From the NCBI GenBank assembly GCA_019120295.1, contig DWVI01000004.1, positions 166,758-230,757 on the forward strand: a DNA stretch of 64,000 nt, read 5' to 3'. A model generated the notes under the pieces. That model had not been told where the DNA came from and ran no database searches. It saw only the letters and a list, made by a program, of their open reading frames with translations. How positions within the stretch are numbered: the first letter of the stretch is position 1; every line of letters begins with the position of its first letter. The DNA is from Candidatus Onthoplasma faecipullorum (GTDB lineage: Bacteria > Bacillota > Clostridia > Christensenellales > UBA1242). Position numbers and translations under genes: made by a program. Shown here in pieces: positions 5,699-43,341 of this stretch.

Positions 5699-5757
5699 CG
5701 CTGCAAAATGAGTGCTAAGATAAATAATAGATAATGTGCCATATACCCTTTGAGGTT

Positions 5758-5800: not shown

Positions 5801-5821
5801 TGTTATAAGGAGAGAAACAAA

Positions 5822-6382
5822 ATGAGTCTGAAGAAAGAACCTGAAAAAAAGAGAAAGGCAAACGGACAGTTTGAAAAAGGAAATGAGGTAGGGAAAGAAA
5901 CTCGATTCAAAAAGAATAATTCGGCGGCTTGTAAGTATAAAGACGAATATTGCGATAAGCTTATACAGTTTTTTAATAGACCTAACACAAGAATTGAGTA
6001 TAAAGAGACTTACTATAAAGGCGAGCTTACTTCAAGGACACCTATCCTTTTGCCTGAGGAGTATCCAACGTTTGAATTATTTGCAGCTGAACTTGGCGTA
6101 ACAACTGGAACTTTAAAAAATTGGTGTAAAGAATACCCCCGATTTGCAGACTGTTACGCACGTGCGAAAGAGATTCAACTTGGAAAGCTCACAACAAATG
6201 CAGTAACTGGTTTATATAACCCTGTTTATGCAAAGTTTGAAGCAGTAAACAATCATAATCAGAAAGATAAATCAGAAGTAGATACAAAAGTGTCAGGCAA
6301 TGTTGCAAACATTGATCCAAAAGTTTTAGCCCTTATTGAGAAAGTAAATAAGAGGTTGCAAAATGCAGAAGAAAAGTCGTGA
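5822..6382 (+). CDS. terminase small subunit
   Basis: ATG at 5822 after AAGGAGAG. Basic N-terminus, HTH-like 'GTLKNWCKEYPRFADCYARAKE'. Overlaps and directly precedes the large terminase. Confidence 0.65.
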   Translation: MSLKKEPEKKRKANGQFEKGNEVGKETRFKKNNSAACKYKDEYCDKLIQFFNRPNTRIEYKETYYKGELTSRTPILLPEEYPTFELFAAELGVTTGTLKNWCKEYPRFADCYARAKEIQLGKLTTNAVTGLYNPVYAKFEAVNNHNQKDKSEVDTKVSGNVANIDPKVLALIEKVNKRLQNAEEKS

Positions 6383-7916: not shown

Positions 7917-9871
7917 AAATAGATGTAACAGATTCAAATAAATTAGCATTTTTTCAAGACTTGTATAATGAGGCACGAAGTTATTCTGACAAATTATATG
8001 AGAAGCTCAATCAAAACATAGAACAATACAAGGGTAGCAAAAAGATTGACGGCTCTGAAGTAGATGCAAAGCAGGTAAGAAATATAACTTATGAACTTGT
8101 TGAAAGTCAGGTAACAAGTTATTTGCCTACTCCTGCAGTATCTCCAAAGATGTATAATGACAGGAACGAAAGAAATGCTAAGAGTATAGAAACTTTATTG
8201 CGAAACAAAAGGAATGAATTGCCTTTTGAGAAATTAAACGATATAGACGAAAGATTTAATCCTATTTATGGTGGCTCAATATGGCTCATAGAATGGGATA
8301 ACTCTATAACAACACATAACACTGTTGGAGACGTCAAAATAAGCTGTTTAAGTCCTAAAAAATTTACAGGGCAACCAAACATTTATGACGTCAAAGAAAT
8401 GGAATATTGTTTTATTGAGTTTGAAACAACAAAGGAAGATATTGTTCGTAAATATGGAGTAGCTCCTGAGGTGGCGGACGAAACAGAATCTGAAGAGAAC
8501 TCTGATGATAAAACAGCAACTCTATATGTTTGCTACTATAAGAATGATGCAGATAAGGTATGTCAATATATTTGGTCAGCAGATACTGAATTGTCTGATA
8601 TAGAGGACTATTATGCAAGAAAAAGATATGTCTGCAAGAAGTGTGGCAAGCGTAAAGAAATATGTTCCTGCGAGAAAGGAGATTATGAGCTTCAAAATGA
8701 AGGGTATGAAGAACTTGAAGAAGATATTATCTTAACAGACGGCGAAATTTTGCCTGCTATGTCTCCAGTGATTAAAGACGGACAAGTTGTTACAGAGACA
8801 GTAAAACAACAAGCTATTCTTGAAGACGGCTCTGTTGCTTTAGAGGATATAAACGGCGTAAAACTACCAATGATGGTAGATGTTCAAGTGCCTAAAATGG
8901 AGAAGACAAAACTGCCTTTTTACACTCCAAATATACTGCCTATTGTTATTAGAAAAAACACTTCAGAAGAAGACAGTTTGTTAGGACAGTCAGACGTTGA
9001 ATTTATTAGACCTCAGCAACAAGCAATCAATAAAATTGAGAGTAGAATAGTTGAGAAGCTTATGGGAAGTGGTGTATTCCCTATTGTTCCTGAAGAATTT
9101 AATGGAGAGATAGACAATTCTATTTGGAAGAAAGTGTTTAGAGCAAAGCCGTCTACCTTTAATATGTTCGGAAGAGTTGATTTGCAAGTTGATATAACAA
9201 GAGATATTGCACAGTCAGACAGACTTTATGACCAAGCAAAAAGAATATTAGGTATATCTGACTCTTATCAAGGGCAATATGACGCCAGTGCACAGAGTGG
9301 AAAAGCAAAACAAATTCAAGTAAACCAAGCAGCAGGACGTCTTGATAGTAAACGCCAAATGAAAAATGCTGCTTATGCTGAAATAGACCAAATCATCTTT
9401 CAATATTATCTTGCTTACGCTGACGAGCCAAGACCTGCATCATATAAAGACGCTATGGGCAGAACGCAAAATTGTATGTTTAATAGATACGATTTTATTG
9501 AGAGAGATGAAGCTGGCGAATACTATTACAACGACGAATACTTATTCTCCACTGATGCGACAGTTGATGTTGAACGTAACAGAGAAACTCTCTGGCAAGA
9601 GAATAGAATTAACTTTCAGCAAGGAGCATACGGCGATCCAACACAGCTAACAACATTACTTATCTTTTGGCTTAATATGGAAAAAGCTCATTATCCGTGG
9701 GCTCACGATAATGTCGAAAGGATAAAAGAAGAAATTCAAAGACAACAAGAAATTGCTCAATACCAACAACAAATTCAACAATTAGACAATGAAGTGTCAA
9801 ACAGAAAAAATTATGAAGAATATTTAAAATCTCAAATCTCTAACAGGAGGGAAAACAATGGCAACCAATAA
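7913..9871 (+). CDS. portal protein (with inserted CxxC-x7-CxC knuckle)
   Basis: 652 aa; ATGA-overlapped with terL, which is the canonical portal position. No motif-level proof. Confidence 0.65.
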   Translation: MKIDVTDSNKLAFFQDLYNEARSYSDKLYEKLNQNIEQYKGSKKIDGSEVDAKQVRNITYELVESQVTSYLPTPAVSPKMYNDRNERNAKSIETLLRNKRNELPFEKLNDIDERFNPIYGGSIWLIEWDNSITTHNTVGDVKISCLSPKKFTGQPNIYDVKEMEYCFIEFETTKEDIVRKYGVAPEVADETESEENSDDKTATLYVCYYKNDADKVCQYIWSADTELSDIEDYYARKRYVCKKCGKRKEICSCEKGDYELQNEGYEELEEDIILTDGEILPAMSPVIKDGQVVTETVKQQAILEDGSVALEDINGVKLPMMVDVQVPKMEKTKLPFYTPNILPIVIRKNTSEEDSLLGQSDVEFIRPQQQAINKIESRIVEKLMGSGVFPIVPEEFNGEIDNSIWKKVFRAKPSTFNMFGRVDLQVDITRDIAQSDRLYDQAKRILGISDSYQGQYDASAQSGKAKQIQVNQAAGRLDSKRQMKNAAYAEIDQIIFQYYLAYADEPRPASYKDAMGRTQNCMFNRYDFIERDEAGEYYYNDEYLFSTDATVDVERNRETLWQENRINFQQGAYGDPTQLTTLLIFWLNMEKAHYPWAHDNVERIKEEIQRQQEIAQYQQQIQQLDNEVSNRKNYEEYLKSQISNRRENNGNQ

Positions 9872-12026
9872 GAGAAATGAATTAGATACAACGTATGCTA
9901 CCAATTTAAGGAATAATCAAGGTAGTATTCCTACAGCTCAACAAACTGCACAGGGAGCATCTATAAACAACAACCAAAATAGCAATGTAAATATTGATAC
10001 AAGCTATCAAGCAAACTCTGGTGCACTTTATGGCGGGCATACTGCAAGTTGGTGGCAGCAACAATATGGTTCTGCAGATAATGATTCTAAAGAAATGATA
10101 AGAAAGGCAGCAGATTATTATGGCTATCAAATACCTGAAGCTGTAAGTCAATCAGGCACGCCAATTCCAAGCAATAATCAAGTGCCTGCAGCTGCAACAA
10201 ATCTTAATTATTCTGCAAACGTAAGAAGTCTTTCAACACCTGTAGAACAAACTACAACAGGGCAAACAAATACAACTGCAAATCAAGAAACAACAGATAC
10301 TCCAATTGACAGCTATGAAGAGTTCTTGAAGAAGCAAGCAGAGGGTTATCAGGAGACGCTTGATAAAACAAATCAATATATTGACGAGCAAAAACAATCA
10401 ACTATTGAAAGAGCTGAAGCTGAAAGAGAGAGAAACATAGTTGACGCACGTTCAAGTTATGCTCAAAACAGAGCGGGTTATGGAACAAATGCGGAAACGT
10501 TGGCAAGTATGGGTTTAACTGGAAGCGGATATAGCGATTATCTTGATCAACAAGCTTATGCAACTCAAAGGGCAGAAGTCCAAGCAGCAAATGTTCAATC
10601 AGAAAGCACTAAGCTTGAAGCAGAACAGCAAGCAAATGCTGATAGGCTAAACGCACAACTCACTTATGACCAAAATATGGCTCAAAATGAGGCAAATTTA
10701 GCAGAGTATCAATTACAACAGGAAGAGCAAAGGAAATCTGCTTATGCTGAGCTTTTAACTTATGCTAACAACGGAACATATTCTGAGCAACAAATTGAGG
10801 AATTGGGTGCACAATATGGTCTAAACGATGATCAAGTCAAACTACTCACTGATGCAGCAAAAACATTTAAAGAAAATCAACAAAATGCTACGTATTACGA
10901 GTTATTAGGTTCTGTAGATACAAGTGGCTTCGAGTCGCTAAAATCTGCTCTTGATAGTGGCTCAATCACTCAAGCACAATATGAAAGCCTCAGAGAAAAT
11001 TATCAAACATACTATTATGATATGTATACGTCATCAATTAGTTCTGACTTTACAGCAGTAAACACTGAAGATATTGATAACGCAGTAAATAAAGGGTATA
11101 TCACGAAAGTTCAATATGATAACCTTAAACAAAAATATAACGAGAGTCTTGCAAGCTCAATCTCTGCAGCATTTATCTTCTATGCAAATGGCGTTCAATT
11201 GGATGAGCAAACAGCACGTTCTGTTGTAGATGAATTGAAAAATACAGGTTGGTTGACAGATGAAAACAAAAACAAGCTCGATTCGCTTCTTGAATCTACT
11301 TATAAAGAAGACGATGGTGGCGGCTGTTATGCAAAAGGCACTTTAATTACAGTTGCAGACGGCTCTCAGGTTCCAGTAGAAGATTTGAAAGTTGGAGATG
11401 TTGTCAAGGTATTTAACCACAATACGGGCAGGTTAGATAATTCTGCAATATCATACATTTTCTACGATGGCGAAAAAGAATACGATGTTCTTAATCTTAC
11501 ATTTAGCAATAACGCAAGTATTGAAGTTTTATTCGGACACAGTTTCTTTGATGTTGATTCAAGAAAATATGTTTTGATAAACAATAACACTGTTGAGCAA
11601 TATTTAGGACACAACTTCTATTTTGTTTCTAATGAAAATGGAGAGTGTAAAAACGAAATTGTTTCTTTAACGGACTATAAAACTTACAAAAAAGCAACAG
11701 AGTGTTTTGCCGTTCTTACAGCAGAACATATCAATAGCTTTGCTAATGGCTTATTGAATATTACAGACGATGAAAATGTTCCAAGCGAACCACTAAGAGG
11801 CTTTACAAACATCTTTGAGCTTGATTCAGATTATAAATACGACCAAGAAAAAATGGAATCGGATATTAACAAATACGGCTTATTCTCATATAGCGAGTGG
11901 AAAGACTATGTAACTGAAGAGCAATTTAATGCGTTTAACGGTAGTATTCTTAAGGTTGCAATTGGCAAAGAACTTATCTCAATGGAAGAGCTGCAAGATT
12001 ATATAAACAAATTCTTAAAAAATTAA
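9858..12026 (+). CDS. virion-associated protein with Q/N-rich N-terminus, coiled-coil region and C-terminal Hint (Hedgehog/intein-like) autoprocessing domain
   Basis: 'DDGGG|CYAKGTLITVADGSQVPVEDLKVGDVV' is a Gly-Cys Hint start. 'IEVLFGHSFF' is block-B-like and 'LTAEHINSFANGLLN' is a C-terminal block ending in Asn. Confidence 0.6.
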   Translation: MATNKRNELDTTYATNLRNNQGSIPTAQQTAQGASINNNQNSNVNIDTSYQANSGALYGGHTASWWQQQYGSADNDSKEMIRKAADYYGYQIPEAVSQSGTPIPSNNQVPAAATNLNYSANVRSLSTPVEQTTTGQTNTTANQETTDTPIDSYEEFLKKQAEGYQETLDKTNQYIDEQKQSTIERAEAERERNIVDARSSYAQNRAGYGTNAETLASMGLTGSGYSDYLDQQAYATQRAEVQAANVQSESTKLEAEQQANADRLNAQLTYDQNMAQNEANLAEYQLQQEEQRKSAYAELLTYANNGTYSEQQIEELGAQYGLNDDQVKLLTDAAKTFKENQQNATYYELLGSVDTSGFESLKSALDSGSITQAQYESLRENYQTYYYDMYTSSISSDFTAVNTEDIDNAVNKGYITKVQYDNLKQKYNESLASSISAAFIFYANGVQLDEQTARSVVDELKNTGWLTDENKNKLDSLLESTYKEDDGGGCYAKGTLITVADGSQVPVEDLKVGDVVKVFNHNTGRLDNSAISYIFYDGEKEYDVLNLTFSNNASIEVLFGHSFFDVDSRKYVLINNNTVEQYLGHNFYFVSNENGECKNEIVSLTDYKTYKKATECFAVLTAEHINSFANGLLNITDDENVPSEPLRGFTNIFELDSDYKYDQEKMESDINKYGLFSYSEWKDYVTEEQFNAFNGSILKVAIGKELISMEELQDYINKFLKN

Positions 12027-12041
12027 AATAAGGAGTCATAA

Positions 12042-15000
12042 ATGGCAACACTTTCATCAATAAAACAACAGTTTAACACAAGAACAGGAGCTGCATCTTT
12101 ACTAACTGAGAATCAAATTCAAACAGCTGCAACAAGAAGAGAAGAAGAGGAAGAAGCAAAAAAGAATAATGGAGGCTTTTTCGGAGGAATAGGATATGTT
12201 CTTGAGAAAATCGGTTTAGGTTTTTTAAGTGGCATTGAGGGTATTTGGGACTATACTGCTGGAGGACTTGCTAAATTATTTGGTGCTGATGACTGGGCAG
12301 AACAGCAATTTGCAAATGATTGGGTAGATTATAATCACGCAGACGAGTGGTATAATCCGTCAGATGGCTGGAAAGTAGTAGGAGATGTTGCTGGAGGTAT
12401 AGGAACGAGTTTGCCTGCTATAGCTGGAGTTGCTGCTGCAGGTGCTATTACAGTTGCATCAGGAGGCACTTTAAGCCCTGTTGCTGCAGGTCTTATTTCT
12501 GCAAGTGTGGCAGGCTTAGGTGCGGCAGGTAGGGCGACAAAAGAAGCCTACGAACAAACAGGAGAACTTGGAGGAAAGGAATTTGGTTATGGTGCTCTTG
12601 TTGGTATTACAGAGGGAACTGTAGAGGGCTTATCAGCTGGTATTGGTGCAGGAACTGGTGCTGTGATTAAGAATATAACCAAATCATTCGGCAAAGAAGT
12701 AGCAAAATCTACCGCAAGACAAACATTTACAAAAACAATTTTTAAGAGTTTTGTTGGAGAGGCTTTTGAAGAGGGGTTGTCAGAGATGCTTACACCTGTT
12801 TGGAAGCGTCTTACATACGATCCAAATGCAAAAAATGCTACATTTCAAGAGATTGGCTATGCAGCACTTGTAGGGGGCTTGAGTGGTGCAATAATGGGAG
12901 GTTTTGATGTTTCTGTAAGAAATGTTGGAAGTTATACTCGTGGGAACACTATAGTAAATCAATCTAAAGCTGACGGTGTTTTATCAACTGCACAGCAAAT
13001 CAGTGAATATGAGACAAATAACCATACTGGATATGAATCTTTTGAGGCTGTTCAAAGCTTATATAACGAATTGCAAAGCAGTTTGACTAAAACAAATGGG
13101 CAAATATCAACTATGAGACAAAAAATGCTTGTAGGTATGCTTGAAAGAGCAAATACTTCCGCCACCTTTACGCCTTTTGTTGCTCGAAGTGCTGAAAATA
13201 TTGTAAATAATGCAGAACTTATTGCTCAAAGGTTATCAAGTTATGGATATACTGATGCAAACGGGAACCCTATTACATTCACTGCAGAGCAAATAAGGAA
13301 TGGAGTTGATGTAAATAAACGTGGCAGTTTTGCAAATGCACTAAAAAACAATGATATTTTAAGAACGCTTGCAGTTGCAGATGCAACAGGGCAATTAACA
13401 ATGGATACTGCTAAATTTAGAGAAGCAACTCTTATGGGACAAAGATTAAGTTCTCAAGCCGACTTAAATAGATTTATTGAAACAGCAACAGATTCTGAAT
13501 TAAGAGCAGTGTCAGAACGTTTAGGCATTGAAGACTGGCAAACAATAACAAATGAAGAGTTTCAAAATAAAATAACTGAATTTGTTGAAAATGGTGGAGT
13601 TGAAACATATAGACAAGAGAGTTTAATTATAAAAGAAGCTCAAAGTATTTCTCTTGAAAGTGCTCAAAGACTTGGAAGAGTTGTGAGACTTACTCAGGAC
13701 GGCACTTACCGCTTCCGCTCTGCAAATGCTGATATTGCAATTGTAAAAAACGGAGATTCTTATAGAATATTTGACTATGAAAGTGGGAGATTATCAAATG
13801 AATTAACTCGTGCAGAATTAAATAGAGTTATTAGAGAAATAAATAATCAAAATGAGCAAGCCGCTTCCGCCGTCAAAGAACAGTTAGAGCAGAGAGAGCA
13901 ACAAGAGAACAGATATAAGATTCAGGCTCAGGAAATTGACACCTTTGCTCGTGAAAATATCAAAGATTATGCAAAATTAAACGAAAGTAATAAAAGTATG
14001 GTCAGAGCTGTCATAAGGCAGGCAAGAGCTTCAGGTATAGCAGAAGCAGATGTTTTGTCTTATGCAAGAGTATCGGCTCATACTGGCTTAAATATTATCT
14101 TTAGTAAGAGGCTTTGTAAGGTTGGAACAGACTCAAATGGAGATTTGTATGCAGATGGCTATTTTGATACTAATAATAACAGAATTGTTGTAAACCCTGA
14201 GACAAAAAGAACACACGAGCAATTGCTTATTCACGAACTTACACACGTTATTTACAGAACTCAAGACGGAAAGCTAATTTTAGAACGTGGTGTAAGAAAT
14301 ATGTCTGACGCAGAGAAACAATCAATTATTAAACGTTATTCTGAAGCTGGAAGAGGCAAAGCAATTGAGCTAATGGACGAGATAAACGCTCATTATGCAG
14401 AGGGTATGCTTACAAATAAAAATTTAATAGAGAAATTGGTGGCGGATAAACCAACAATAAAAGATAGAATTGTAAACTTTTTTAAACGGTCAACTGAAAC
14501 ATATTCAGAGGATACTAAGCTCACTAAAGCTGCGAAATCTTTATTTAGCAGATATAAAAAACTGTTCGATAGCTTTTCAGCAGTAAACCAACAATCTAAT
14601 TCTGTAGAGGTAAATAATTCTGCATCTAATCGTATGGCACTTGCAAATGACGGCGAAAATGGTTATAATAATCAAAAAGGAGTTAAAAATGGAGAAGAAA
14701 ACGCAGAAACAACAGAAAACCAACAAACAAGCAGACAAACCAACGTTCGGGATAATAGAGAACGGCGAAGTCTTTCCGTTTTTAATGACAACGGAACAGT
14801 TAGACAATTATCTGAAATCATCAAAGACAAACCAAAAGAAGAAAGAATAGGAAATTTATTTACAGAAATTTATACAAAATCTGTAAATGAGACGCAAGAT
14901 AATTTAATTTGGCACGCTAAAAATGAAGATGTGAAAATTTATTTTGCAAAATCAAGAGGTAGTGGAAATGTTTATTATTTTGACGGCGAAAATTTAATTG

Positions 15001-18000
15001 TAAATGAAAATATTACAGAAAAAAATCTTGTTGATATACTAAATATTGAAAAACCTATACAAAGAAATGTTGATACCAACAAAGTGGCTCATATATCTAA
15101 TGAAAGATGGAATAGATTTATAGATTTTGAGCCAAAAACTTATCTTACAAGAATACCAATTCAACAATTTCTTGATATGACAACAGAAAACTATGTTGAA
15201 CAAAGACAATTAAACGCACGTTCTACACAAATGTCAAAGAAAATAGCCGCTTCCGATATAAAGAATACCGCAGGCGAGTTTATGTATCTTAAAATTGACT
15301 TAAAAAACAACAAAGTAGTAGATCACGAGGGTAGACATCGTATGACTGCGTTACTTAATGCTGGCAATGCGTATGCAGATGTGTTTGTTATTCCTGTAAA
15401 TGATGTTGGAGCAGATTATTATGGCAATATAGAAGTAACAGGACAATTTAATTCTAATAAATACAATTTAGGACTTGTAAGAGCTCAAAGTAAAAAATTT
15501 GCAGACTCAATTGAAAGAGTTTTTAGAATAGATGACGGGAATATAAGGTATGCTTTACCTGAGACAGACTCAAATGGCAATGCTTTGACTGATAAGCAAC
15601 GTGAATATTTTTCAAATAGCAAAGTTGTTGATGAAAACGGAAATCTTTTAGTTGTTTATCACGGAACAGGTAACAATGAATTTACTATTTTTGATATTAA
15701 AAAATCGAAAGCCACAGGGATGCTTGGTCAAGGCTTTTATTTTACAAAAAATCAAGAAGAAGCATCAAGCAAGTATGCAAAGAGGAACGGTAGAGTTATA
15801 TCTGCATATTTAAATCTTGAAAAACCTTTATATGTTGACCTTGTTCACAAATCTTCTATTATTAACAAATTAAGAGATGAGTTTGGTGGAAAATTCGATG
15901 TTGATGCTTATCTATATAATGCAAGATATAGAGATAGAGTTGACACAAGCAGGATGCTAAGTTTAATACAGCAACAAGGTTATGATGGAATAATAAATAA
16001 ACAGAAGGGGTATTATGTTGCATTCAATTCTAATCAAATCAAAGAAACAACCAACATTAGACCTACATTAAATAATGATATTAGATACGCTTTAGATAAC
16101 AGCAAAGACGCCAAAGATTTAGTTGCTATTCACAACACAAGTGAAGCAAAACTCTTGCAGTCAATAGAGTTAGGTGGACTTGCTATGCCAAGTATTGCTA
16201 TAGTTAGAAGTGATATAGGACACGAGGGTTTTGGTAACATAAGCCTCATTTTAAAATCTGATGCAATTGACCCACAGAAAAATTATGACAATAAAGTGTA
16301 TTCTGCCGACGCATACTCTCCAAGATTTCCTCAAATTGCATATTCTTTTAACGGAAAAGAATTGAGAGCTCTTGCTGATAAAATGGATACAAGTGTTTCT
16401 ATGCTTGAAGCCAATGATTTCGCAGAGGGAAATACTCGAGAAAGAATGATTGACAATCTTAAAAACAATGAATACTTCATTAAACATTATCTTAAAGAAT
16501 TTGGAATTAAAGCAGAAATTGTCTATAAACCAGCGGAATATTCAAATGCTATATATTTGAAAGAAGACGTTAAAAATTTTTTACTCAAAGATTACTCATT
16601 TGAAGAGTTGATGAATAGTGATAAAGTTCAGCAAGAATTACAAAATGCTGTAGATAAAGCTAAAGAAAAAGAGACACGTGAGTTCAAGAAAAATATACTA
16701 CAACATTCGTATGAGAAACTAATTAGAAGTTTGGATGATGCCCGTAATGAAAAATTTATTTATGATATTTTAGAAAAAGACTATAATAACGACAAACTTA
16801 TTGCTCAAGGGAAAGCAGAACAAGTAGTTAATGCCTACGAAACAGAAAGAAAAACAAAAGAAAAACTTAATGGCGACAAACAATTTAACGATTATGCAAA
16901 AAGTTCTGTAGACAAAGTATTAGATAAGAAATATTTAAGAAACAATAAAGATTACTATACAAATAGTGGTAACCCACGTAGTTTTGAAGCATTACACGAT
17001 GATTATACAGCAGAAAATGCTGTCCGCATTATGAAAGAACAGGGTGGAAAAAACAGCGAGGGCGGTAATGTCTTTGGTTTTGGTATAGGAGAGATAAGAG
17101 CTGCTTTAAGCAAAATATATTATAGCATAGAAGAAATGCATCAAGATGAGTATAGATTACAAACAATAACAGATGAAAGTTCTAAACTATACGAAGAATG
17201 CAACGATGATTTGCATAATATTGCAAGCGGTTTGTCTGAAAGAATAAAAACTGGCAATTTTTTGGAAGAACACGATATTGCTCTTAATGCAATTTTCGAT
17301 GTTATATCAAAAACAAAGACCAATGAACAAGCAAAGAGACTTATAAAAAGAGATTATAGGCTTGATATAACAGATACGGAAATTACTGACATAAGAAAAC
17401 TTGCTGATAAAGTTGCAGAATTGCCAGTAAAATATTTTGAAGCCAAACCAGAGCGAGTAGTAAATTTTAATGAGATTGTTAAGGCGTTTGTTCCCATCAA
17501 TACCAATAAAAGAATTTTGGACTTTTTAAGGGAACAGGGAATAGATGTTCAAATCTATAGCGAAAGCACTCCAACAAGAGCAGAGCTGATAAAAACTTTA
17601 TCTGACGATATACGTTTTGCTTTACAGACCAACGAAAATGAAGATAGTAGGGCGATAGGAGGACTTTCAAGAGGGCAAAGAGCTAAATTTGTTGCAAATA
17701 ATACTCACTTAAAAGTATATTCAAAGGCGGAGGCGGCTGAAGTTATAAATAGTATCATTGACGAAAGGCTTGTTCTTGAAGACAAATATGGCTCTTTAAG
17801 CGGAAAGAGCAAGGCTGAAGTTGTTGATATGTTATTTAGACAATTAAACTCTGCAAAAGAGGGATATAGAAGCTCAGTTGCTCTTAATATTGCAGACTAT
17901 CTCATTGAAAACACCGTCCTTAACGATATGTATGTATATGACAACGCAGATGCTATGAATGATTTAACAGTGTTGCGTAGTTATATGCACAAAGTAGATT

Positions 18001-21000
18001 TAAAAAGTATTTGGGGAGAAATTCAGTATAAATTTGACGACAAACGCAACAGCATAGCCCTTGTTTGGGGTGCAAGAGAGGGCGGAATGGCTCCTGATGT
18101 TATAGCTCAAGAGTTAAATGATAGAGGTATACGTATTGAGGCTATAAATGAGGCAGATTGCTTCTTTGAAATGCTTGAAAAGTATGAATCATTGCGTAAA
18201 GATGTTAATCAAAAAGCCAAGGAAGTTATGCTTAGAGATTATGGTAGTGAAGAACAAATTGAAACATTGAGGCAGCAAATTGCAAAAGATATTCTTTTAG
18301 CATACGACCAGAAAGGGACTCAATCTAAATATGGAAGACTTGTTGAGAAATATACTGCTCAAATAGAAAGTTTGAGACGACAAGTAAAAGAAACACGACA
18401 ACAAAATATTCTTATGAATAATATAGCAGATAGAGCACAAAAGTTGAAAGACTTAAAACTCGGGACTTTCTTAAATGCAACTCAATACAAAAACGATATT
18501 TTTCAAAATTCAATTGAGCGTTTGGCAAATATAAAATATAGAGGGAATTTTAATGCAACGGGCACTCGTAGAATAATGGCTGAATTAAGGCAGTGGTATA
18601 ACAAAGATAACCCTGTTCTTGCAGATAGTTATAGCGAAGATGTTGCGTATATGATTGATACTCTATCGCAAGGCAACAGGAACTATACTACAGAAGAATT
18701 GAGTATGTTGAGAAATGTGATGTCTTATTTTGTAAATTTTGTTGAAAATTATAACAAAGTTTATAGACAAGGTAAATGGATAGATGCAATACCAGAAGCA
18801 GAAAGATATATTGATGTTCTGCATAGAAATAAAGACGTAAAATTAGGAATATTTAATCGTCTTACAAGCAGCACTTATTATCAAACATTTGGCGATCCTA
18901 TGGCGGTTGCAAGACGTATGGATATGTATGAAAATGGTTTTTATACTGAAATGATGTCAGAACTTCGAGATGCGGCAGTAGATGCAGAAATTGCAGAAAT
19001 GGAAGTAAAAACGCCATATAAAAACTTTCTTGACACACACAAGAAATATTTAAGAGAAATTGAAAATACTTTAGTTACTTATCAGGGTGTAGAGATACCA
19101 AAGACACATTTAATCAGTTTATATATGACGCTCAAACGTGAACAAGCACAAGCAGGTTTAGCACAAAATGGTTTTGCTTTTATTGATAATAAGAAAAATA
19201 AAGTTAGAGTGAAAGGTTTTGCTCCTGATGTTGCAAGTGATACCGATTTGCTTACACGTGTTGTTGAAGAACAAGCTAAAATAGACAAGTTACTATCTAA
19301 TACAGATAGAGAATATATTGCTATTTTAGAGTCTGGATATAATCAAGATGCGAAAAAATTAAAAGCCGAAAGAGATATGCAAAGGCTTGGTTTTACAAAT
19401 GCAACCGAAGATTATTATTATCCTATTCGCAGAGGGAATATAGCACGCAATATTGACACATCTGATATTGCTTCAGAGTTAGATAGAGTAAGCAACGCTT
19501 CTTTCAATAAAGATACTGTAAGAGGTGCAAAGCAAGAGCTCTATATAGAGTCTGCAGACGTAGTATATAACAGACATATTAAGGCAGTAACAAAATATGC
19601 TTATCTTTCTCCAGCAATTGAGAACTATAACAGATTGTATAATGTAGACATCTCGGGAAACAGAAATAAGCCAGTAAGTGTGGCAACAGAAAGTGCAAAT
19701 ACTTGGGATAAAGGAAACAAATATTTTAGCAAGCTTATATCCGACATTCAAGGAATACCATCAAGCTCAAGTGAGGGAATGAAATTACTTGGGTTTATCA
19801 GAGGAAGTTATGCAAAGTTTCAATTGGGAGCGAATCCAAAAACTTGGGTAACACAATTATCATCATTATTTGCCTCAACAAGCATCTTAGATACAAATAG
19901 CGTGATTAGAGGCCTAACTATATCAGGAAAAGACGTTGACACGTATTGTTCTCTTGCAAAACTGAGAAATGCTGATAATACTGCAGCAATGGCACAAGGG
20001 TTATTAGATAAAGTTGGCAAGGTTTCAAATGTCTTAATGGCACCTATTGGGAAAATGGATAGATTTGTTATTAGAAAGTTGTTTGGAGCTTGTCAGGTGC
20101 AGGTTGAAAAGAATGGCGGAGCAAAAGTTGGAACAGTCGCAAATAAGACTGAAGCAGGAAAACTATTGCGAAGAGTTATTCTTGAGACGCAACAAAACTC
20201 TATTGTAACTGAGCGTTCTGCAGCTATGAGATCAGGTAATGAAGTTTTAAGAACGGTAACTATGTTCTCTGCCGATAGTATGAAAGCAATGGCAAGGTTG
20301 GTTGATTCCGTTGGAGAATTGACAACTTTAAGAGCAAAATTGAGAGCGACGACTGATGTTGAATTGCAAAACACTTTAAGAAAGCAAATAAAAACTGCTC
20401 AACGTAAACTAAGGAAATCTGCAATGGCAATGGCTTCAACTGCTGCATTTATGGTTGGCGTAGCTCAATTATTTAATTGGCTTTATAATAAAGACAATGA
20501 TGATGAAGAAGATAAGGCTCAAGCATTAGTTGTAGATTTTGTTGGTAACTTATTTGGCGGTTTGCCTTTGATTAGAGATATTTATACAAAATTTACTGAG
20601 GGCTATGATATAGACAGCTATAGTTATTCTGCATTAAACGATTTGCTAAATAGTGCCGTTGATATATTTGACTTAGTAGAAAATTTAGTCTCAGGAAATT
20701 CTTCAAGTCAAGAAATTGCATCAAGTATTAAAAAATTATCATACGCCATTGGTCAAGCTTTTGGCTTCCCTGTAAGAAATATTTATAACGTGCTTTATGG
20801 CTTAACAAAACGTATTAGTCCAGCAACAGCATATAAAATAGACAACACTTTCTATAACAAAAGCTATATTTCTGACTTAAATGCTGCTATAGAAAACGAT
20901 GATGCTGAAATGATTACAACAATTATGAGTATTTTACTAAACGAAAGAATAGGTGGAGAAATTAGCGATAAAGTAATAGAAAGACTTAATCGTCTATATT

Positions 21001-21617
21001 CTTTAGGATATTCTGTTTTGCCTCGCACAGTTGGAACAAGTTTGACTTATAATGGAGAAAGTTTTGCAATAACATCGGCTCAGAGAGAAAGCTTTAAGAA
21101 AATTTATAGTCAGGCAAACAAATATATCGAAAGTATGATCACGGATAGGTCTTTTGGTAAATTGACGGAAGAGCAACAAGCAAAGGCGTTAAAACAGGTT
21201 TATGATGCGTATTATTCAAAAGCTCTTTCTGATACATTGAACGTTGATGCAGAGACAAATCTTTATAAATATTCTCAATTTATCCCTATAAATAAACTAT
21301 CTATTGCATTAACGGGTATTTCAGGGATTGAATCTGATAAAACACTTCAAGGAACGACAATAAGTGGATCTAAAAAGAAAAAAGTGATTACTTATTTATT
21401 AGGACAAAACCTTACAGATGAGCAAAGGTTGCTGATATTATTGCTTCAGGGTTACACAATTCAAGATAGAGAATATAAAAACTATACAGAAGAGCAGGTA
21501 AAGAACAAATTGCTTAAATATATATTAGCTATGAAGATTACACAATCAGAAAAAGAAGATTTATTAAGCAAGATTGGCTATGAGGTTAAAAACGGCAGAG
21601 TGATTATAAACAGATAA
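12042..21617 (+). CDS. giant (3191 aa) multi-domain 'polyvalent' virion protein: Gly/Ala-rich hydrophobic N-terminal region, HExxH zincin, ParB/Srx-like motif, H-Y-E-type ADP-ribosyltransferase-like motifs, C-terminal TM segment
   Basis: A single uninterrupted ORF with RBS AAGGAG. Motifs: 'LLIHELTHVIY' (aa 731-735), 'VDHEGRHRMTALLNAG' (aa ~1094), 'VVYHGTGNN' and 'GQGFYFT' (aa 1206-1235), 'AMASTAAFMVGVAQLF' (aa ~2795). Confidence 0.7.
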   Translation: MATLSSIKQQFNTRTGAASLLTENQIQTAATRREEEEEAKKNNGGFFGGIGYVLEKIGLGFLSGIEGIWDYTAGGLAKLFGADDWAEQQFANDWVDYNHADEWYNPSDGWKVVGDVAGGIGTSLPAIAGVAAAGAITVASGGTLSPVAAGLISASVAGLGAAGRATKEAYEQTGELGGKEFGYGALVGITEGTVEGLSAGIGAGTGAVIKNITKSFGKEVAKSTARQTFTKTIFKSFVGEAFEEGLSEMLTPVWKRLTYDPNAKNATFQEIGYAALVGGLSGAIMGGFDVSVRNVGSYTRGNTIVNQSKADGVLSTAQQISEYETNNHTGYESFEAVQSLYNELQSSLTKTNGQISTMRQKMLVGMLERANTSATFTPFVARSAENIVNNAELIAQRLSSYGYTDANGNPITFTAEQIRNGVDVNKRGSFANALKNNDILRTLAVADATGQLTMDTAKFREATLMGQRLSSQADLNRFIETATDSELRAVSERLGIEDWQTITNEEFQNKITEFVENGGVETYRQESLIIKEAQSISLESAQRLGRVVRLTQDGTYRFRSANADIAIVKNGDSYRIFDYESGRLSNELTRAELNRVIREINNQNEQAASAVKEQLEQREQQENRYKIQAQEIDTFARENIKDYAKLNESNKSMVRAVIRQARASGIAEADVLSYARVSAHTGLNIIFSKRLCKVGTDSNGDLYADGYFDTNNNRIVVNPETKRTHEQLLIHELTHVIYRTQDGKLILERGVRNMSDAEKQSIIKRYSEAGRGKAIELMDEINAHYAEGMLTNKNLIEKLVADKPTIKDRIVNFFKRSTETYSEDTKLTKAAKSLFSRYKKLFDSFSAVNQQSNSVEVNNSASNRMALANDGENGYNNQKGVKNGEENAETTENQQTSRQTNVRDNRERRSLSVFNDNGTVRQLSEIIKDKPKEERIGNLFTEIYTKSVNETQDNLIWHAKNEDVKIYFAKSRGSGNVYYFDGENLIVNENITEKNLVDILNIEKPIQRNVDTNKVAHISNERWNRFIDFEPKTYLTRIPIQQFLDMTTENYVEQRQLNARSTQMSKKIAASDIKNTAGEFMYLKIDLKNNKVVDHEGRHRMTALLNAGNAYADVFVIPVNDVGADYYGNIEVTGQFNSNKYNLGLVRAQSKKFADSIERVFRIDDGNIRYALPETDSNGNALTDKQREYFSNSKVVDENGNLLVVYHGTGNNEFTIFDIKKSKATGMLGQGFYFTKNQEEASSKYAKRNGRVISAYLNLEKPLYVDLVHKSSIINKLRDEFGGKFDVDAYLYNARYRDRVDTSRMLSLIQQQGYDGIINKQKGYYVAFNSNQIKETTNIRPTLNNDIRYALDNSKDAKDLVAIHNTSEAKLLQSIELGGLAMPSIAIVRSDIGHEGFGNISLILKSDAIDPQKNYDNKVYSADAYSPRFPQIAYSFNGKELRALADKMDTSVSMLEANDFAEGNTRERMIDNLKNNEYFIKHYLKEFGIKAEIVYKPAEYSNAIYLKEDVKNFLLKDYSFEELMNSDKVQQELQNAVDKAKEKETREFKKNILQHSYEKLIRSLDDARNEKFIYDILEKDYNNDKLIAQGKAEQVVNAYETERKTKEKLNGDKQFNDYAKSSVDKVLDKKYLRNNKDYYTNSGNPRSFEALHDDYTAENAVRIMKEQGGKNSEGGNVFGFGIGEIRAALSKIYYSIEEMHQDEYRLQTITDESSKLYEECNDDLHNIASGLSERIKTGNFLEEHDIALNAIFDVISKTKTNEQAKRLIKRDYRLDITDTEITDIRKLADKVAELPVKYFEAKPERVVNFNEIVKAFVPINTNKRILDFLREQGIDVQIYSESTPTRAELIKTLSDDIRFALQTNENEDSRAIGGLSRGQRAKFVANNTHLKVYSKAEAAEVINSIIDERLVLEDKYGSLSGKSKAEVVDMLFRQLNSAKEGYRSSVALNIADYLIENTVLNDMYVYDNADAMNDLTVLRSYMHKVDLKSIWGEIQYKFDDKRNSIALVWGAREGGMAPDVIAQELNDRGIRIEAINEADCFFEMLEKYESLRKDVNQKAKEVMLRDYGSEEQIETLRQQIAKDILLAYDQKGTQSKYGRLVEKYTAQIESLRRQVKETRQQNILMNNIADRAQKLKDLKLGTFLNATQYKNDIFQNSIERLANIKYRGNFNATGTRRIMAELRQWYNKDNPVLADSYSEDVAYMIDTLSQGNRNYTTEELSMLRNVMSYFVNFVENYNKVYRQGKWIDAIPEAERYIDVLHRNKDVKLGIFNRLTSSTYYQTFGDPMAVARRMDMYENGFYTEMMSELRDAAVDAEIAEMEVKTPYKNFLDTHKKYLREIENTLVTYQGVEIPKTHLISLYMTLKREQAQAGLAQNGFAFIDNKKNKVRVKGFAPDVASDTDLLTRVVEEQAKIDKLLSNTDREYIAILESGYNQDAKKLKAERDMQRLGFTNATEDYYYPIRRGNIARNIDTSDIASELDRVSNASFNKDTVRGAKQELYIESADVVYNRHIKAVTKYAYLSPAIENYNRLYNVDISGNRNKPVSVATESANTWDKGNKYFSKLISDIQGIPSSSSEGMKLLGFIRGSYAKFQLGANPKTWVTQLSSLFASTSILDTNSVIRGLTISGKDVDTYCSLAKLRNADNTAAMAQGLLDKVGKVSNVLMAPIGKMDRFVIRKLFGACQVQVEKNGGAKVGTVANKTEAGKLLRRVILETQQNSIVTERSAAMRSGNEVLRTVTMFSADSMKAMARLVDSVGELTTLRAKLRATTDVELQNTLRKQIKTAQRKLRKSAMAMASTAAFMVGVAQLFNWLYNKDNDDEEDKAQALVVDFVGNLFGGLPLIRDIYTKFTEGYDIDSYSYSALNDLLNSAVDIFDLVENLVSGNSSSQEIASSIKKLSYAIGQAFGFPVRNIYNVLYGLTKRISPATAYKIDNTFYNKSYISDLNAAIENDDAEMITTIMSILLNERIGGEISDKVIERLNRLYSLGYSVLPRTVGTSLTYNGESFAITSAQRESFKKIYSQANKYIESMITDRSFGKLTEEQQAKALKQVYDAYYSKALSDTLNVDAETNLYKYSQFIPINKLSIALTGISGIESDKTLQGTTISGSKKKKVITYLLGQNLTDEQRLLILLLQGYTIQDREYKNYTEEQVKNKLLKYILAMKITQSEKEDLLSKIGYEVKNGRVIINR

Positions 21618-21629
21618 ATAGTGACTAAA
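21614..21629 (+). promoter_or_regulatory. 16-nt motif ATAAATAGTGACTAAA, copy 2
   Basis: Exact repeat of 5683-5698; overlaps the stop codon of the giant gene. Confidence 0.35.
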
Positions 21630-21672
21630 TGCAGTTTAATCTGTGTTATGATTTATGATAGGAGGAAGAGAG

Positions 21673-21837
21673 ATGCTTTTAATCGCTCCTACAATGGAAT
21701 CTGAAATCACTAAAATCGTTTGTCCTCACTGTAACGAAAAAGTTCCAAGAATAGGCATAAAAAAAGGCAGCAATATTCAAGGTTTGACTTTTAAATGCCG
21801 AAGATGTGGAAAATTATGGGAAGTAACAACTAAATAA
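21673..21837 (+). CDS. small zinc-ribbon protein (Mu Com-like architecture)
   Basis: ATG at 21673 after TAGGAGGAAG; 'CPHCNEK...CRRCGK' two CxxC pairs in 54 aa. Confidence 0.5.
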   Translation: MLLIAPTMESEITKIVCPHCNEKVPRIGIKKGSNIQGLTFKCRRCGKLWEVTTK

Positions 21838-21863
21838 TTACTCGTGCCAGTATCCATAGAGAT

Positions 21864-21910
21864 AGAGCCCTTACACACTTAAAATCAAGTGTTATAGGGC
21901 TCTTTTCTTT
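21864..21910 (+). terminator. rho-independent terminator (long interrupted hairpin plus T-run)
   Basis: AGAGCCC-T-TACACACTT-AAAATC-AAGTGTTA-T-AGGGCTCT followed by TTTCTTT. Confidence 0.7.
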
Positions 21911-21940
21911 ATAAAAAAATCTAAAAAAGGAGGAATTGCT

Positions 21941-22069
21941 ATGAAGTCTAACAAAGCGAACAACTTTGCTACTAACAAAGGCGGAATTATTAAGGCTCCA
22001 AAGCCAGTAAAAGACCAGCCTAAATCAACAGTAGTAAAAGGCAACGACCTTAGAAATGGTAGTAAATAA
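21941..22069 (+). CDS. small basic protein (42 aa); below the ORF-track size cut-off
   Basis: AAAGGAGG 7 nt upstream of the ATG. Translates as MKSNKANNFATNKGGIIKAPKPVKDQPKSTVVKGNDLRNGSK. First ORF after the terminator and ahead of the scaffold gene. Confidence 0.45.
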   Translation: MKSNKANNFATNKGGIIKAPKPVKDQPKSTVVKGNDLRNGSK

Positions 22070-22100
22070 TTTAAGTCTAAAATAGGAGGAGAAGACGATT

Positions 22101-22949
22101 ATGGACGAAAAAGACGAAAACAAACTTAATGAAGAGATAGATGAACCAGTTGAAGAATTGGACGAAAATACTGAATCAGAATCAAATTTTGATGACGAGG
22201 ATGAATTTGAATATGATGAGGACGGGAATATTATCATTCCTGATATTTCAGAAGATGAAGAAGTTGATGATGAGCCAGCTGAAGACGACGCTGAAAAACA
22301 AGATAGCGAGGAATCAAGTGATTCAGAAGAGCCACCAGCTGAAGCTCCTGCAGAAGAAACGCACAATGAGAAAGATGATAGAATTGCAAAGCTTGAGAAA
22401 GAATTAAGTTTGCTTAGGACTCAAGGCAAGGAAACTCTTTCAAAATTGGGGGTTGAGACTGATGATATTTTAGGCGGTTTGGAAAAATTGGCAGCAGAAG
22501 CAGACGATATTCCAGTTGAAGAATATCGGAAAAATAAAGCTGTTGCCGAGAGAGATAATGAAGCAAGAAAACTTTTACAAAAAGTCGAATTTGAAAAGAA
22601 AATGAAAGCAGACTTGCTTGAAGTGCAGGCGGCATATCCTGAGACAAAAAACCTAACTTCAATTGAACAAATTGAAAACTTTCCTAAGTTTGGAATGTTG
22701 AGAGACAAGGGCTTGTCTCCAAAGGAAGCTTATGCTGCAGCAAATGCTGATAGTATAAGAAAAAGTGTTGCAAGTGCAGTAAAACAACAATCTCTTAACG
22801 AGACAAAAAATCATCTAAAATCATCTGTTCCAAAAGGTTCTAAAGATAATTCAATAACAATGCCGAAAAGTGCATTGAAAGAATGGAAAGATTTATTTCC
22901 GCATCTAAGCGACAAAGAAATAGTCGCACTTTACAAAAAAACAATTTAA
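22101..22949 (+). CDS. scaffolding protein (putative)
   Basis: Extremely acidic D/E-rich N-terminus followed by coiled-coil sequence; located just upstream of the capsid genes. Confidence 0.55.
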   Translation: MDEKDENKLNEEIDEPVEELDENTESESNFDDEDEFEYDEDGNIIIPDISEDEEVDDEPAEDDAEKQDSEESSDSEEPPAEAPAEETHNEKDDRIAKLEKELSLLRTQGKETLSKLGVETDDILGGLEKLAAEADDIPVEEYRKNKAVAERDNEARKLLQKVEFEKKMKADLLEVQAAYPETKNLTSIEQIENFPKFGMLRDKGLSPKEAYAAANADSIRKSVASAVKQQSLNETKNHLKSSVPKGSKDNSITMPKSALKEWKDLFPHLSDKEIVALYKKTI

Positions 22950-22964
22950 AAAGGAGAAAAAAAT

Positions 22965-23363
22965 ATGTTTAAGCTTAGTAAAATTGAAAACGCAAGAATG
23001 AACGTGCCTGAGCCTGAATATTTGCCTGTAACAGCTTCTGAAGCTGTGTCAGAGGGCGAAGCTCTTGTTCTTTCTAATGGTGCACTTACAAAGTGCGGAG
23101 CAACTGCTACACCTACTTATATTGCTATGGGAAGCGTTGCAGCAGATGCAGAAGATAGAGAAATTGCTGTTTGCAGAGTCGAAGCAAATCAGGTATATGA
23201 GGTTCCAGTAACCGCAGCTCCAACTACACTTAAGGTTGGCGATAAGGTAACACTTCATACAGACGGTCTTCAAGTAACCGCCACCACAACAAGTGGAGTG
23301 GCAACAGTTGTTGCTCTTAATGGTGCTGCTGCAATTGGAGACTTGATTCAAGTAAGATTTTAA
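22965..23363 (+). CDS. small head protein (decoration or auxiliary capsid protein, putative)
   Basis: 132 aa, Ala/Val/Thr-rich and beta-like; lies between the scaffold and capsid ORFs. Confidence 0.35.
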   Translation: MFKLSKIENARMNVPEPEYLPVTASEAVSEGEALVLSNGALTKCGATATPTYIAMGSVAADAEDREIAVCRVEANQVYEVPVTAAPTTLKVGDKVTLHTDGLQVTATTTSGVATVVALNGAAAIGDLIQVRF

Positions 23364-23382
23364 TTTGGGAGGAAAATAAGAA

Positions 23383-24426
23383 ATGAGTAACTTTATTTAC
23401 AGCAAAATGTCAGGTAAAAACGATCCAATGTTTGGAAAGTTTGAACATCCTATTAAAGCTTTGATTGAAAACGAATCTAATGCTTGTGAAAAAAGAAAAG
23501 GTGTTTTGGACTTCTTGTATAACGTTGAAAAATCAAATAGATATGCTGAAACAATTATCGGCGAATCTGATTTCGATACTTTCCAAAGCGTTAAAGAGGG
23601 ACAAGGTGCCGAAAATGACAACGTTGAAACTACTTTCAAAAAGACAATTGAACATATTACTTTTATGAAAGAGTTTACTATTACAAAAGAAATGGCAGAC
23701 GATGCTAAATTCGGTATGGGAACAAATATGACGAATAAGCCAAAGAAATTTGTTCGTGCATACTACAAAACACGTAATAAGATTGCAGCTTGGGCTCTTA
23801 TTAACGGAACTAAAACAAGTGGCACATTTAACAAGGCTGTTGTTGATCTTGCTTGTCAAGACGGGTTGTCTTTGTTTAACAATGCACATACCTACGCAAC
23901 TGAGAAAATGAAAGGCAAAACTCAAACTAACTACTTCTATGGCGACCTTACAAGCACTGCTGCAAAACTTGAAGAAACAATGGGAGTTCTTGCAAACAAA
24001 CTTAGAAACTTCAAGGATGAAAATGGGGAGACAATGGAATATATTGCAGACGTAATTATTATTCCTTGCAACCGTCCAAAACTTGAAGCTATGGTTAAGA
24101 AAGTTGTTGGTTCTGAAAGGACTGTTGGAAGCGATTATAACGACATCAATACTCAATACGGTAACTGGACTGTTGTTGTTCTCGATGGTTGGGAAACAAC
24201 TGATGATCGCTTTATGATTATGTCTTCAGAGGCAAATGAAAACTTGCTTGGAAATATGTTCTACAACAGGGTTCCTCTTGATATTAGAAATAATATTGAC
24301 GACCATACTCGTAATTTCTATTGGAATGGTTATTGCCGTTTTGGTGTTGGCTTCAACACTTGGAAACATATTTTGCTTGCAGTGAATAGCTCTTCTGCAG
24401 TTACAGGAGCAACTAAAGTCGAATAA
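23383..24426 (+). CDS. major capsid protein (putative)
   Basis: 347 aa, strong RBS, position after the scaffold gene. No motif confirmation. Confidence 0.55.
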   Translation: MSNFIYSKMSGKNDPMFGKFEHPIKALIENESNACEKRKGVLDFLYNVEKSNRYAETIIGESDFDTFQSVKEGQGAENDNVETTFKKTIEHITFMKEFTITKEMADDAKFGMGTNMTNKPKKFVRAYYKTRNKIAAWALINGTKTSGTFNKAVVDLACQDGLSLFNNAHTYATEKMKGKTQTNYFYGDLTSTAAKLEETMGVLANKLRNFKDENGETMEYIADVIIIPCNRPKLEAMVKKVVGSERTVGSDYNDINTQYGNWTVVVLDGWETTDDRFMIMSSEANENLLGNMFYNRVPLDIRNNIDDHTRNFYWNGYCRFGVGFNTWKHILLAVNSSSAVTGATKVE

Positions 24427-24443
24427 ATCTAAAGGAGGATATT

Positions 24444-43340: not shown

Positions 43341-43341
43341 T

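Follow-up and report, generated by a model that had tools for sequence, protein, structure and literature searches.

A gut Clostridia prophage gene for a probable polyvalent protein of 3191 residues, with ART-PolyVal and PBECR5 domains in a widely conserved frame

What kind of protein does a prophage encode in an open reading frame (ORF) of ~9.6 kb set among its head genes? We ask this of a gene in a 64,000-nucleotide (nt) stretch of contig DWVI01000004.1 from Candidatus Onthoplasma faecipullorum; the whole stretch is called the window, and nucleotide positions are counted along it. The first phage proteins to go to work in an infected cell are predicted to be the polyvalent proteins; to our knowledge, they have almost never been studied experimentally, and none from gut Clostridia has been. 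A first-pass annotation of the window, made from the letters alone, had proposed that the gene encodes such a protein, and we consider it likely that this gut Clostridia prophage gene indeed encodes a phage-type polyvalent, that is, multi-effector, protein that is packaged in the head, injected and acts on the host.

12042–21617, + strand: giant gene, for a probable polyvalent protein; one ORF with a ribosome-binding site; identical protein on public contigs.

The gene is a single uninterrupted ORF, as first read, for a product of 3191 amino acids (aa; ~350 kDa). Its start codon is ATG; AAGGAG lies 8 nt before it, and the frame has a stop at 12039. As many as 14 public contigs, one of them a 506-kb chromosomal contig, encode the identical protein.

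First, two domains of the protein pass their curated Pfam cut-offs, and for this reason we count the giant protein among the phage-type polyvalent proteins as understood by Iyer et al. 2017 (PMC5512222), where both families were defined.

15630–16061, + strand: ART-PolyVal domain, aa 1197–1340, with H1207, Y1233 and D1315 (PF18760).
16083–16703, + strand: junction motif 3 (R1348-Y-A-L), then PBECR5 nuclease domain, aa 1348–1554 (PF18814).
16815–17600, + strand: module of ~260 aa that accompanies PBECR5, aa 1592–1853.

The ADP-ribosyltransferase (ART) match reaches 91.6 bits against a cut-off of 31.2 (E = 9.8e-26) and covers model positions 1–137 of 140. The motifs VVYHGTGNN (aa 1204–1212, nt 15651–15677) and GQGFYFT (aa 1229–1235, nt 15726–15746), from which a diphtheria-toxin-type H-Y-E enzyme had been read, are present where they had been placed, and the columns of H1207 (in YHGT), Y1233 (in GFYFT) and D1315 (in GYDGI) are conserved in 38 aligned paralogous or orthologous ART copies. 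The ART assignment stands, but its type would be H-Y-D rather than H-Y-E, as the published family is described, within the Tox-ART-HYD2 clade; going by that description, D1315 would lie on strand 5 of the fold (PMC5512222). Judged by sequence, what the domain shares with diphtheria toxin is no more than membership of the H-Y-[EDQ] division. A PDB sequence search with the whole giant protein gave no match, diphtheria toxin and PARP included, one relative matches PARP weakly (E = 8e-5), and the position before YVAF, a Glu in many ART paralogues, is Tyr1324 here.

The PBECR5 domain, overlooked in the first-pass annotation, matches at 128.8 bits (cut-off 25, E = 3.9e-37, model positions 3–221 of 239) and by its Pfam family is a barnase/EndoU/colicin-E5/RelE-like, RNase-like nuclease domain. 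Its companion module is always paired with PBECR5 in relatives (L014, L017, L018, L020, L034, L046 and L064) and is covered by phrog_22978. By tblastn, phage matches that span aa 1358–1865 come from Bacteroides phage BF1-TP2, Acinetobacter phage Ab9 and Cobetia phage Carin1, and giant ORFs of BF1-TP2, Ab9 and others hold the pair; BF1-TP2 gp68 (3633 aa) aligns at 25% identity to aa 1193–1859, which comprise the ART, PBECR5 and companion module. Matches below cut-off elsewhere in the giant protein (COesterase, RecX_HTH2 and SET_assoc) were judged spurious, and NCBIfam and PADLOC returned nothing meaningful for the whole protein.

Second, the gene lies within a run of head genes, in the order TerS, TerL, portal, 722-aa gene, giant gene, 282-aa gene, decoration, major capsid protein and adaptor.

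5750–6382: TerS.
6363–7916: TerL.
7913–9871, + strand: portal (phrog_156, E = 2e-33; weak SU10_portal match).
9858–12026, + strand: 722-aa gene, with a Hint/BIL self-processing domain at aa 488–633 (nt 11319–11756).
22101–25358, + strand: downstream head genes, namely the 282-aa gene (possibly scaffold), decoration, major capsid protein and adaptor.
22965–23363: decoration- or cement-like gene.
23383–24426: major capsid protein (phrog_371, E = 4e-7).
24444–25358: SU10-adaptor-like gene (weak SU10-type match).

The giant gene follows the 722-aa gene after 15 nt. Its placement between portal-proximal and scaffold or capsid genes, part of the earlier claim, holds for the portal and major capsid protein neighbours, whereas the 'scaffold' label of the 282-aa gene is putative. 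A giant gene sits between the portal/722-aa pair and the capsid genes in 23 of 80 related loci too, and the downstream head-gene order is repeated in 21–23 of them. The first proposal, of a polyvalent protein with an ART encoded among head genes, is supported. The 722-aa protein consists of a Q/N-rich, coiled-coil-like N-terminal half, a Hint/bacterial-intein-like domain and a tail of ~85 aa. The Hint domain begins with GGC, ends with FANGLL and matches PDB entries 6y75 and 6tmm over 146 residues (E = 1e-3), with sub-threshold matches to both Pfam Hint_2 and Hint, which suggests from sequence a self-cleaving head protein. In 21 related prophages this gene is syntenic but variable, with 30–54% identity over parts. 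Between the giant gene and the 282-aa gene lie 484 nt (21617–22101), in which the public annotations of the identical contigs have two tiny ORFs (42 aa and 54–60 aa), neither with a family match.

Third, the architecture of the giant protein is shared by a large family. Its relatives, sought segment by segment in a set of 5.8 billion proteins and by tblastn, are proteins of 2200–4700 aa (2200–3470 aa for complete ORFs among species-representative genomes) with a common N-terminus, a common C-terminal core and a variable middle. One 3191-aa representative, P0108, is 97% identical to the giant protein; among 50,697 phage records, near-identical DNA was absent.

12162–13028, + strand: N-terminal Gly/Ala-rich, partly hydrophobic module, aa 41–329.
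13029–13850, + strand: two lineage-conserved modules, aa 330–459 and 462–603, without a Pfam match.
17622–21584, + strand: all-alpha C-terminal core, aa 1861–3181, with a hydrophobic helix pair at aa 2793–2844.

The N-terminal module, which the first-pass annotation had described as Gly/Ala-rich and membrane-like over ~300 aa, bears out that description: Gly and Ala make up 40% of aa 101–200, the 19-residue Kyte–Doolittle mean exceeds 1.5 at aa 120–138 and 144–162, and zipper-like [GA]xxx[GA]xxx[GA] motifs number 17, compared with 9 in the remaining 2860 aa. It forms the N-terminus of most complete family members. In this lineage the constant N-terminal block is extended by the two modules of aa 330–603 and a zincin-like module, and in ~20 related loci the former always accompany the N-terminal module and the zincin.

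The core is the larger constant part, its homology spanning approximately aa 1860 to 3188. The C-terminal 791 aa have 94 homologues at 36–66% identity and no Pfam domain, and a scan of species-representative genomes with the core found at least 111 loci, nearly all in metagenome-assembled genomes (MAGs) of gut Clostridia (Christensenellaceae, Oscillospiraceae, Eubacteriales, Acutalibacteraceae and Ruminococcus). The AlphaFold2 model of aa 2000–3191 is almost entirely helical, with a predicted local distance difference test (pLDDT) score of 74 and a predicted template modelling score of 0.61. Searched against BFVD, it has 66 matches at E ≤ 1e-3, which are C-terminal pieces of predicted viral giant proteins whose names come from a PolyVal-ART, MuF-C, LPD or nuclease part; E-values fall as low as 1e-74, and lie at 1e-10 to 1e-24 for matches of 12–18% identity. 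From these structural matches we take the core to be a deep, shared part of phage polyvalent proteins. A weak BFVD match to a 'structural protein' of Tenacibaculum phage Gundel_1 led to nothing useful in the literature. The C-terminal transmembrane helix of the first-pass annotation corresponds to a conserved pair of hydrophobic helices (aa 2793–2811 and 2826–2844), but a true transmembrane helix is not borne out, the first of the pair having a Kyte–Doolittle mean of 1.48 and the pair lying in a low-confidence part of the model. Altogether, ~60% of the giant protein is conserved frame, that is, N-terminal block and 1330-aa helical core, without a Pfam or LPD model; the more than 2000 aa that had been thought to hold possible effectors are mostly this frame.

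Such a frame raises the alternative that the main role of the protein is structural: as an ejection or 'pilot' protein, it would form a DNA conduit, in the manner of T7 gp14–16, the P22 ejection proteins or a tape measure, with the enzymes as minor passengers. Its most conserved parts, the Gly/Ala-rich block and the helical core, are non-enzymatic, and the middle of some relatives (L044, L049, L051 and L055) holds no recognisable effector domain. Moreover, no tape measure, tail tube or sheath gene is recognised within the window, whose portal and adaptor have weak matches to SU10-type (podovirus) proteins. By contrast, the giant protein resembles neither solved structures nor families of ejectosome, tape-measure or lytic-transglycosylase proteins, Pfam, PHROG and NCBIfam detecting no tape-measure or lytic-transglycosylase domain in it, and the middle is kept large (600–1900 aa) and is mostly filled with conflict-type domains. 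We therefore regard a chiefly structural role as unlikely, noting that it fits the same data and overlaps with a packaged and injected polyvalent protein rather than excluding it.

The middle is where family members differ. In relatives it holds zero to four ART copies, PBECR3 or PBECR5, LPD3, LPD23, MuF_C and GNAT, and long stretches are unassigned. When 41 variable regions were scanned with Pfam, 25 had ART-PolyVal, 8 LPD3, 8 PBECR3, 6 PBECR5, 5 LPD23, 3 MuF_C and 1 GNAT. Homologous modules recur reshuffled in other proteins, some of them fused to MuF_C, PBECR3 and LPD3. In one relative, L002, the giant gene (5361–13909 of that locus) apparently consists of two ORFs with a 4-nt overlap, the first of 1547 aa with the Gly/Ala-rich N-terminus and the second of 1302 aa with the C-terminal core; the pair lies at a prophage end, beside host sigma-factor genes and after the reverse transcriptase of a diversity-generating retroelement (DGR).

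Modules are separated by a short recurrent motif, of which the third copy is given above.

14631–14642, + strand: junction motif 1, R864-M-A-L.
15546–15557, + strand: junction motif 2, R1169-Y-A-L.
17613–17624, + strand: junction motif 4, R1858-F-A-L, directly before the core.

The four copies of R[YFM]AL in the giant protein (aa 864, 1169, 1348 and 1858) compare with 0.13 expected, and each lies at a module boundary that shuffled homologues define independently. In its strict form, D[IV]R[YF][SA][LI], the motif occurs 74 times in 49 giant relatives (0.06 expected), and 35 of 58 relatives have a junction-type motif no more than 55 aa before the core (2.7 expected). It also ends zincin, HEGRHR and PBECR units. 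We did not find a recurrent D-I-R-[YF]-[AS]-L junction in PMC5512222, where the word 'linker' is absent; the motif itself was not searched for.

Shuffled modules with ART and BECR-fold nucleases are also typical of polymorphic toxins, and the neighbouring 722-aa gene has a Hint domain, as many such toxins do. The protein might thus be a toxin or lysogenic-conversion factor that is expressed by the lysogen and released against competitors without being packaged. Yet a Pfam scan of the giant protein found no secretion marker (LXG, Rhs, PT-HINT or signal peptide), the effector domains are internal to one ORF and are followed by no immunity-like small gene, and the giant gene is embedded in a late head operon, within 15 nt of the gene upstream. 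These points make release as a toxin very unlikely.

Two further modules of the protein carry motifs that the first-pass annotation had noticed. The first belongs to the conserved N-terminal block.

13920–14609, + strand: zincin-like module, aa 627–856, with HELTH at nt 14232–14246 and DEINAHYAE at aa 779–787.

HELTH (H731-E-L-T-H735) lies exactly where it had been reported, on a predicted helix (aa 725–738) that follows a beta-sheet. The HExxH and a downstream Glu are invariant in 41 of 41 family members and in all 18 aligned modules, and DEINAHYAE, with E780 and E787, is conserved downstream. Shuffled sequences give an expectation of 0.016 HExxH motifs, compared with two in the giant protein (HELTH and HEGRH; P(≥2) = 0.0002). 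M78, DUF6782, M91 and SprT-like families are all zincins. Of ten homologues of the module, seven have sub-threshold M78 or DUF6782 matches at the same site. Farther out in the family, matches to DUF6782 and M78 improve to E = 4e-6, and M91 and SprT-like models are also touched. An AlphaFold2 model of aa 620–1180, made from a 38-row alignment, has a mean pLDDT of 81.7, with the zincin part above 80–90. Compared with the PDB by Foldseek, this model had no significant match, although its three domains may have cost sensitivity; the zincin PprI/IrrE was second-best (E = 0.31). A PDB sequence search with the zincin-containing alignment likewise found no match, single matches to Vip1 and RPN1 being noise. 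We conclude that aa 627–856 very probably adopt a zincin fold: the invariant HExxH...E and the fitting predicted fold uphold the earlier claim, whereas no curated family threshold is reached. HEGRH was considered as a second zincin site and rejected, as in the model it spans a strand–loop–helix junction rather than lying on one helix.

That second motif lies in a different domain, which travels with a further module (seen together in P0001, P0002, P0109–P0113 and L014).

14685–15065, + strand: alpha/beta module, aa 882–1008 (AlphaFold2 pLDDT ~90), without a Pfam match.
15072–15524, + strand: HEGRHR domain, aa 1011–1161, a candidate ParB/Srx-like fold without a Pfam model.

The motif VDHEGRHRMTALLNAG, reported to resemble those of ParB/sulfiredoxin (Srx) domains, is present at aa 1093–1108 (nt 15318–15365, slightly off the 15321–15341 first given), and H1095-E-G-R-H-R1100 is invariant in 80 of 80 aligned members. 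With a profile of the domain, at least 1209 proteins were retrieved at E ≤ 1e-3, most of which are solo, ~200 aa long and without Pfam annotation, and an exhaustive HMMER search placed it in dozens of proteins of 2300–4700 aa as well as in small solo proteins. The domain is modelled at pLDDT above 90 with a strand–strand–helix–strand core, predicted as strands at 1082–1086 and 1091–1096, G1097, a helix at 1098–1106 and a strand at 1109–1118. G-R-H-R falls at the strand/helix junction, the position of GERR in ParB and of GCHR in sulfiredoxin.

Several weak signals point the same way. By hhalign, the single best local alignment places the core in register with GERRFRA of Bacillus subtilis Spo0J (E = 0.05), with GGCHR of human sulfiredoxin (E = 0.34) and with Box II of a five-sequence ParB profile made of four phage sequences and a Spo0J fragment (P = 0.0057, probability 6.4%, 43 columns). 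Of all PHROGs, only 'ParB-like partition protein' is matched more than once, by 2 of the 80 members (E = 5e-3). Noise-level NCBIfam matches, beyond which that database gave none, are to SbnI and SerK, which we take to be ParB/Srx-fold kinases. The signals converge, none of them being significant. The ParB/Srx assignment is thus not demonstrated: Pfam had no match at E ≤ 1 in any of 30 members, PDB sequences had none with 30- or 80-sequence profiles, and ParB was absent from the Foldseek top 50 for the three-domain model. We lean modestly towards a ParB/Srx-like fold, possibly that of a nuclease or NTPase. Homology to P1 DdrB, the prototype ParB domain of polyvalent proteins, was rejected at an hhalign probability of 0.6%. 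The profile and structure comparisons that the first-pass annotation had called for thus uphold the ART fold (Pfam E = 1e-25, with PBECR5 added at 4e-37), leave the zincin probable but sub-threshold and give the ParB fold no significant match.

As the zincin and HEGRHR regions both fall below curated family thresholds, and the model that spans them has no significant PDB match, their motifs might be chance occurrences or non-catalytic remnants, leaving only the ART and PBECR5 functional. We judge this highly improbable, given that both motifs are invariant in every aligned member, that both lie in confidently predicted compact domains and that two HExxH motifs would so rarely arise by chance. 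A polyvalent protein of a conjugative element, also raised by the first-pass annotation, was rejected, there being no type IV secretion system or relaxase genes and a clear phage head context.

How does the giant protein compare with known systems? Like the polyvalent proteins of Iyer et al. 2017, it joins unrelated conflict domains in one giant polypeptide, draws with its relatives on the same network of domains (ART-PolyVal, PBECR, zincin and LPDs, with MuF_C in relatives) and is encoded with portal–terminase head genes, its domain content varying among orthologues. Unlike them, it has a zincin without a match to MPTase-PolyVal and a frame, ~60% of its length, without a Pfam or LPD model. 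For the published proteins, packaging in the head and injection are predicted, and the MPTase is assigned the processing step (PMC5512222). The virion RNA polymerase gp50 of coliphage N4, as summarised there, has an N-terminal region for injection, a cargo in the middle and a C-terminal region of ~1400 aa for encapsidation. The giant protein resembles this tripartite virion protein, zincin included, in organisation only, its packaging being predicted from gene position, and it lacks the RNA polymerase domain (no match to an RNA polymerase family). P1 DdrB and DarB are internal to the head and injected with the DNA, and DdrB, which undergoes proteolytic processing, has both a ParB-like domain and a zincin (PMC5512222); its size and other domains differ from those here, in addition to the dissimilar ParB region. 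MuF (SPP1 gp7/Mu gp30) effector fusions are likewise portal-proximal head genes with effector domains, and homologues of aa 624–1174 are fused to MuF_C in P0001, MuF_C also occurring in 3 of 41 relatives; in contrast, neither the giant protein nor the 722-aa protein has a Phage_Mu_F or MuF_C domain. T4 Alt is a head-packaged ART that enters the cell together with the DNA (PMC5512222), but it is a single-domain effector of the R-S-E clade, whereas the ART here belongs to the H-Y-D clade and is part of a 350-kDa protein. Finally, giant ORFs of this sort have been noted, without analysis, in gut Clostridia prophages: phi1 and phi4 of Clostridium clostridioforme LM41 have unusually large ORFs of 8 kb at the prophage 3′ end (PMC11318856), a position like that of relative L002, the likeness being one of description only.

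We propose the following mechanism, in which packaging, injection, cleavage and all enzymatic activities and targets are what we infer from the ART and PBECR5 identities, the family-wide architecture, the synteny with head genes and the junction motif, which are shown. The protein consists of a frame (Gly/Ala-rich N-terminal block, zincin-like metallopeptidase and all-helical core of ~1330 residues) and a swappable middle, which here comprises the HEGRHR domain, one H-Y-D ART and PBECR5 with its companion module, with D-I-R-[YF]-[AS]-L-type junctions between them. It would be made late, alongside the head genes, and loaded by its conserved frame into the capsid beside the portal. At infection, it would be expelled with the DNA, the hydrophobic N-terminal block and core helices aiding passage through the envelope. 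The built-in zincin, as the simplest candidate, or another protease would then cut at the junctions, whose motif may, from its sequence and placement, be a cleavage site. The freed enzymes would ADP-ribosylate host targets, cut RNA and possibly nick DNA, and host defences would be blunted in the first minutes of infection.

Several results weigh against this interpretation. In 57 of 80 related loci, head genes of the type seen in the window are not recognisable at E ≤ 1e-5, and in other lineages the giant gene has other neighbours or lies at a prophage end, as in L002. The core (aa 2000–3191) has no fold match in the PDB (best E = 0.17), and its homology to aa 2100–3500 of N4 gp50 (1401 aa) was rejected at an hhalign probability of 0.2%. 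Because it resembles neither the gp50 C-terminus nor solved structures, its role in encapsidation or ejection is argued from analogy and conservation only. Part of the excess of junction motifs comes from duplicated homologous ART modules that bear the motif at their ends. As for the protease, the Peptidase_M78 match over HELTH reaches only 15.1 bits (cut-off 22, E = 0.02), MPTase-PolyVal (PF18818) has no match to the giant protein, and the zincin stays below all curated Pfam cut-offs.

Weighing these together, we retain the polyvalent protein as the likely reading and offer, as a tentative and rather doubtful extension, that its frame is an undescribed, widespread effector-delivery chassis. 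The core and N-terminus would serve capsid loading and envelope passage, cassettes would be swapped between junctions that the zincin cuts, and the HEGRHR domain would represent a new ParB/Srx-like enzyme family found both solo and in such carriers. If true, this would provide a general rule for reading, and for re-loading, giant phage proteins.

The giant protein is a well-delimited addition to the known class of phage polyvalent proteins that extends an established concept, and its conserved frame, junction motif and HEGRHR family without a Pfam model may go beyond published descriptions. The locus offers two confidently assigned enzymes, a built-in protease candidate and a conserved HEGRHR domain without a family model, together with a 1330-residue core that is present in more than 100 gut species and, by structure, in many uncultured phages. 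Its architecture makes it testable which part loads a 350-kDa protein into the capsid and whether the junctions are processing sites.

The rest of the window shows the setting of the prophage. Host genes flank it from ~37.4 kb, from which we take the element to be integrated in a low-GC Firmicute. An insertion-sequence-type transposase (37457–38599; rve integrase core, HTH_Tnp_1) stands approximately where the phage genes stop on the right; a phage integrase was not recognised anywhere in the window, and the left end of the prophage may fall outside it. An M1 peptidase, a DnaB_2 replication-initiation/membrane-attachment protein, CysS and a long RelA/SpoT follow (40238–46453 and 60835–62919). 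These genes and a GC content of 31–35% point to a Firmicute host, which fits the gut Clostridia MAGs that carry the closest relatives. A second giant ORF, of 2930 aa, lies in the host part (46824–55616); with its N-terminal Big_2 Ig-like domain and a weak GH85_C match, it probably belongs to the cell surface and has nothing to do with the prophage.

The tail region of the prophage holds a DGR of its own (30840–33892).

30840–30942: DGR template repeat, 103 nt.
31095–32150: DGR reverse transcriptase (RVT_1, E = 5e-17).
32802–32904: DGR variable repeat, inside the gene of a DUF6273 protein (32135–33892).

All mismatches between the template and variable repeats fall at adenines of the template copy, and the variable repeat lies downstream of the reverse transcriptase, in the middle of the target gene rather than at its 3′ end.

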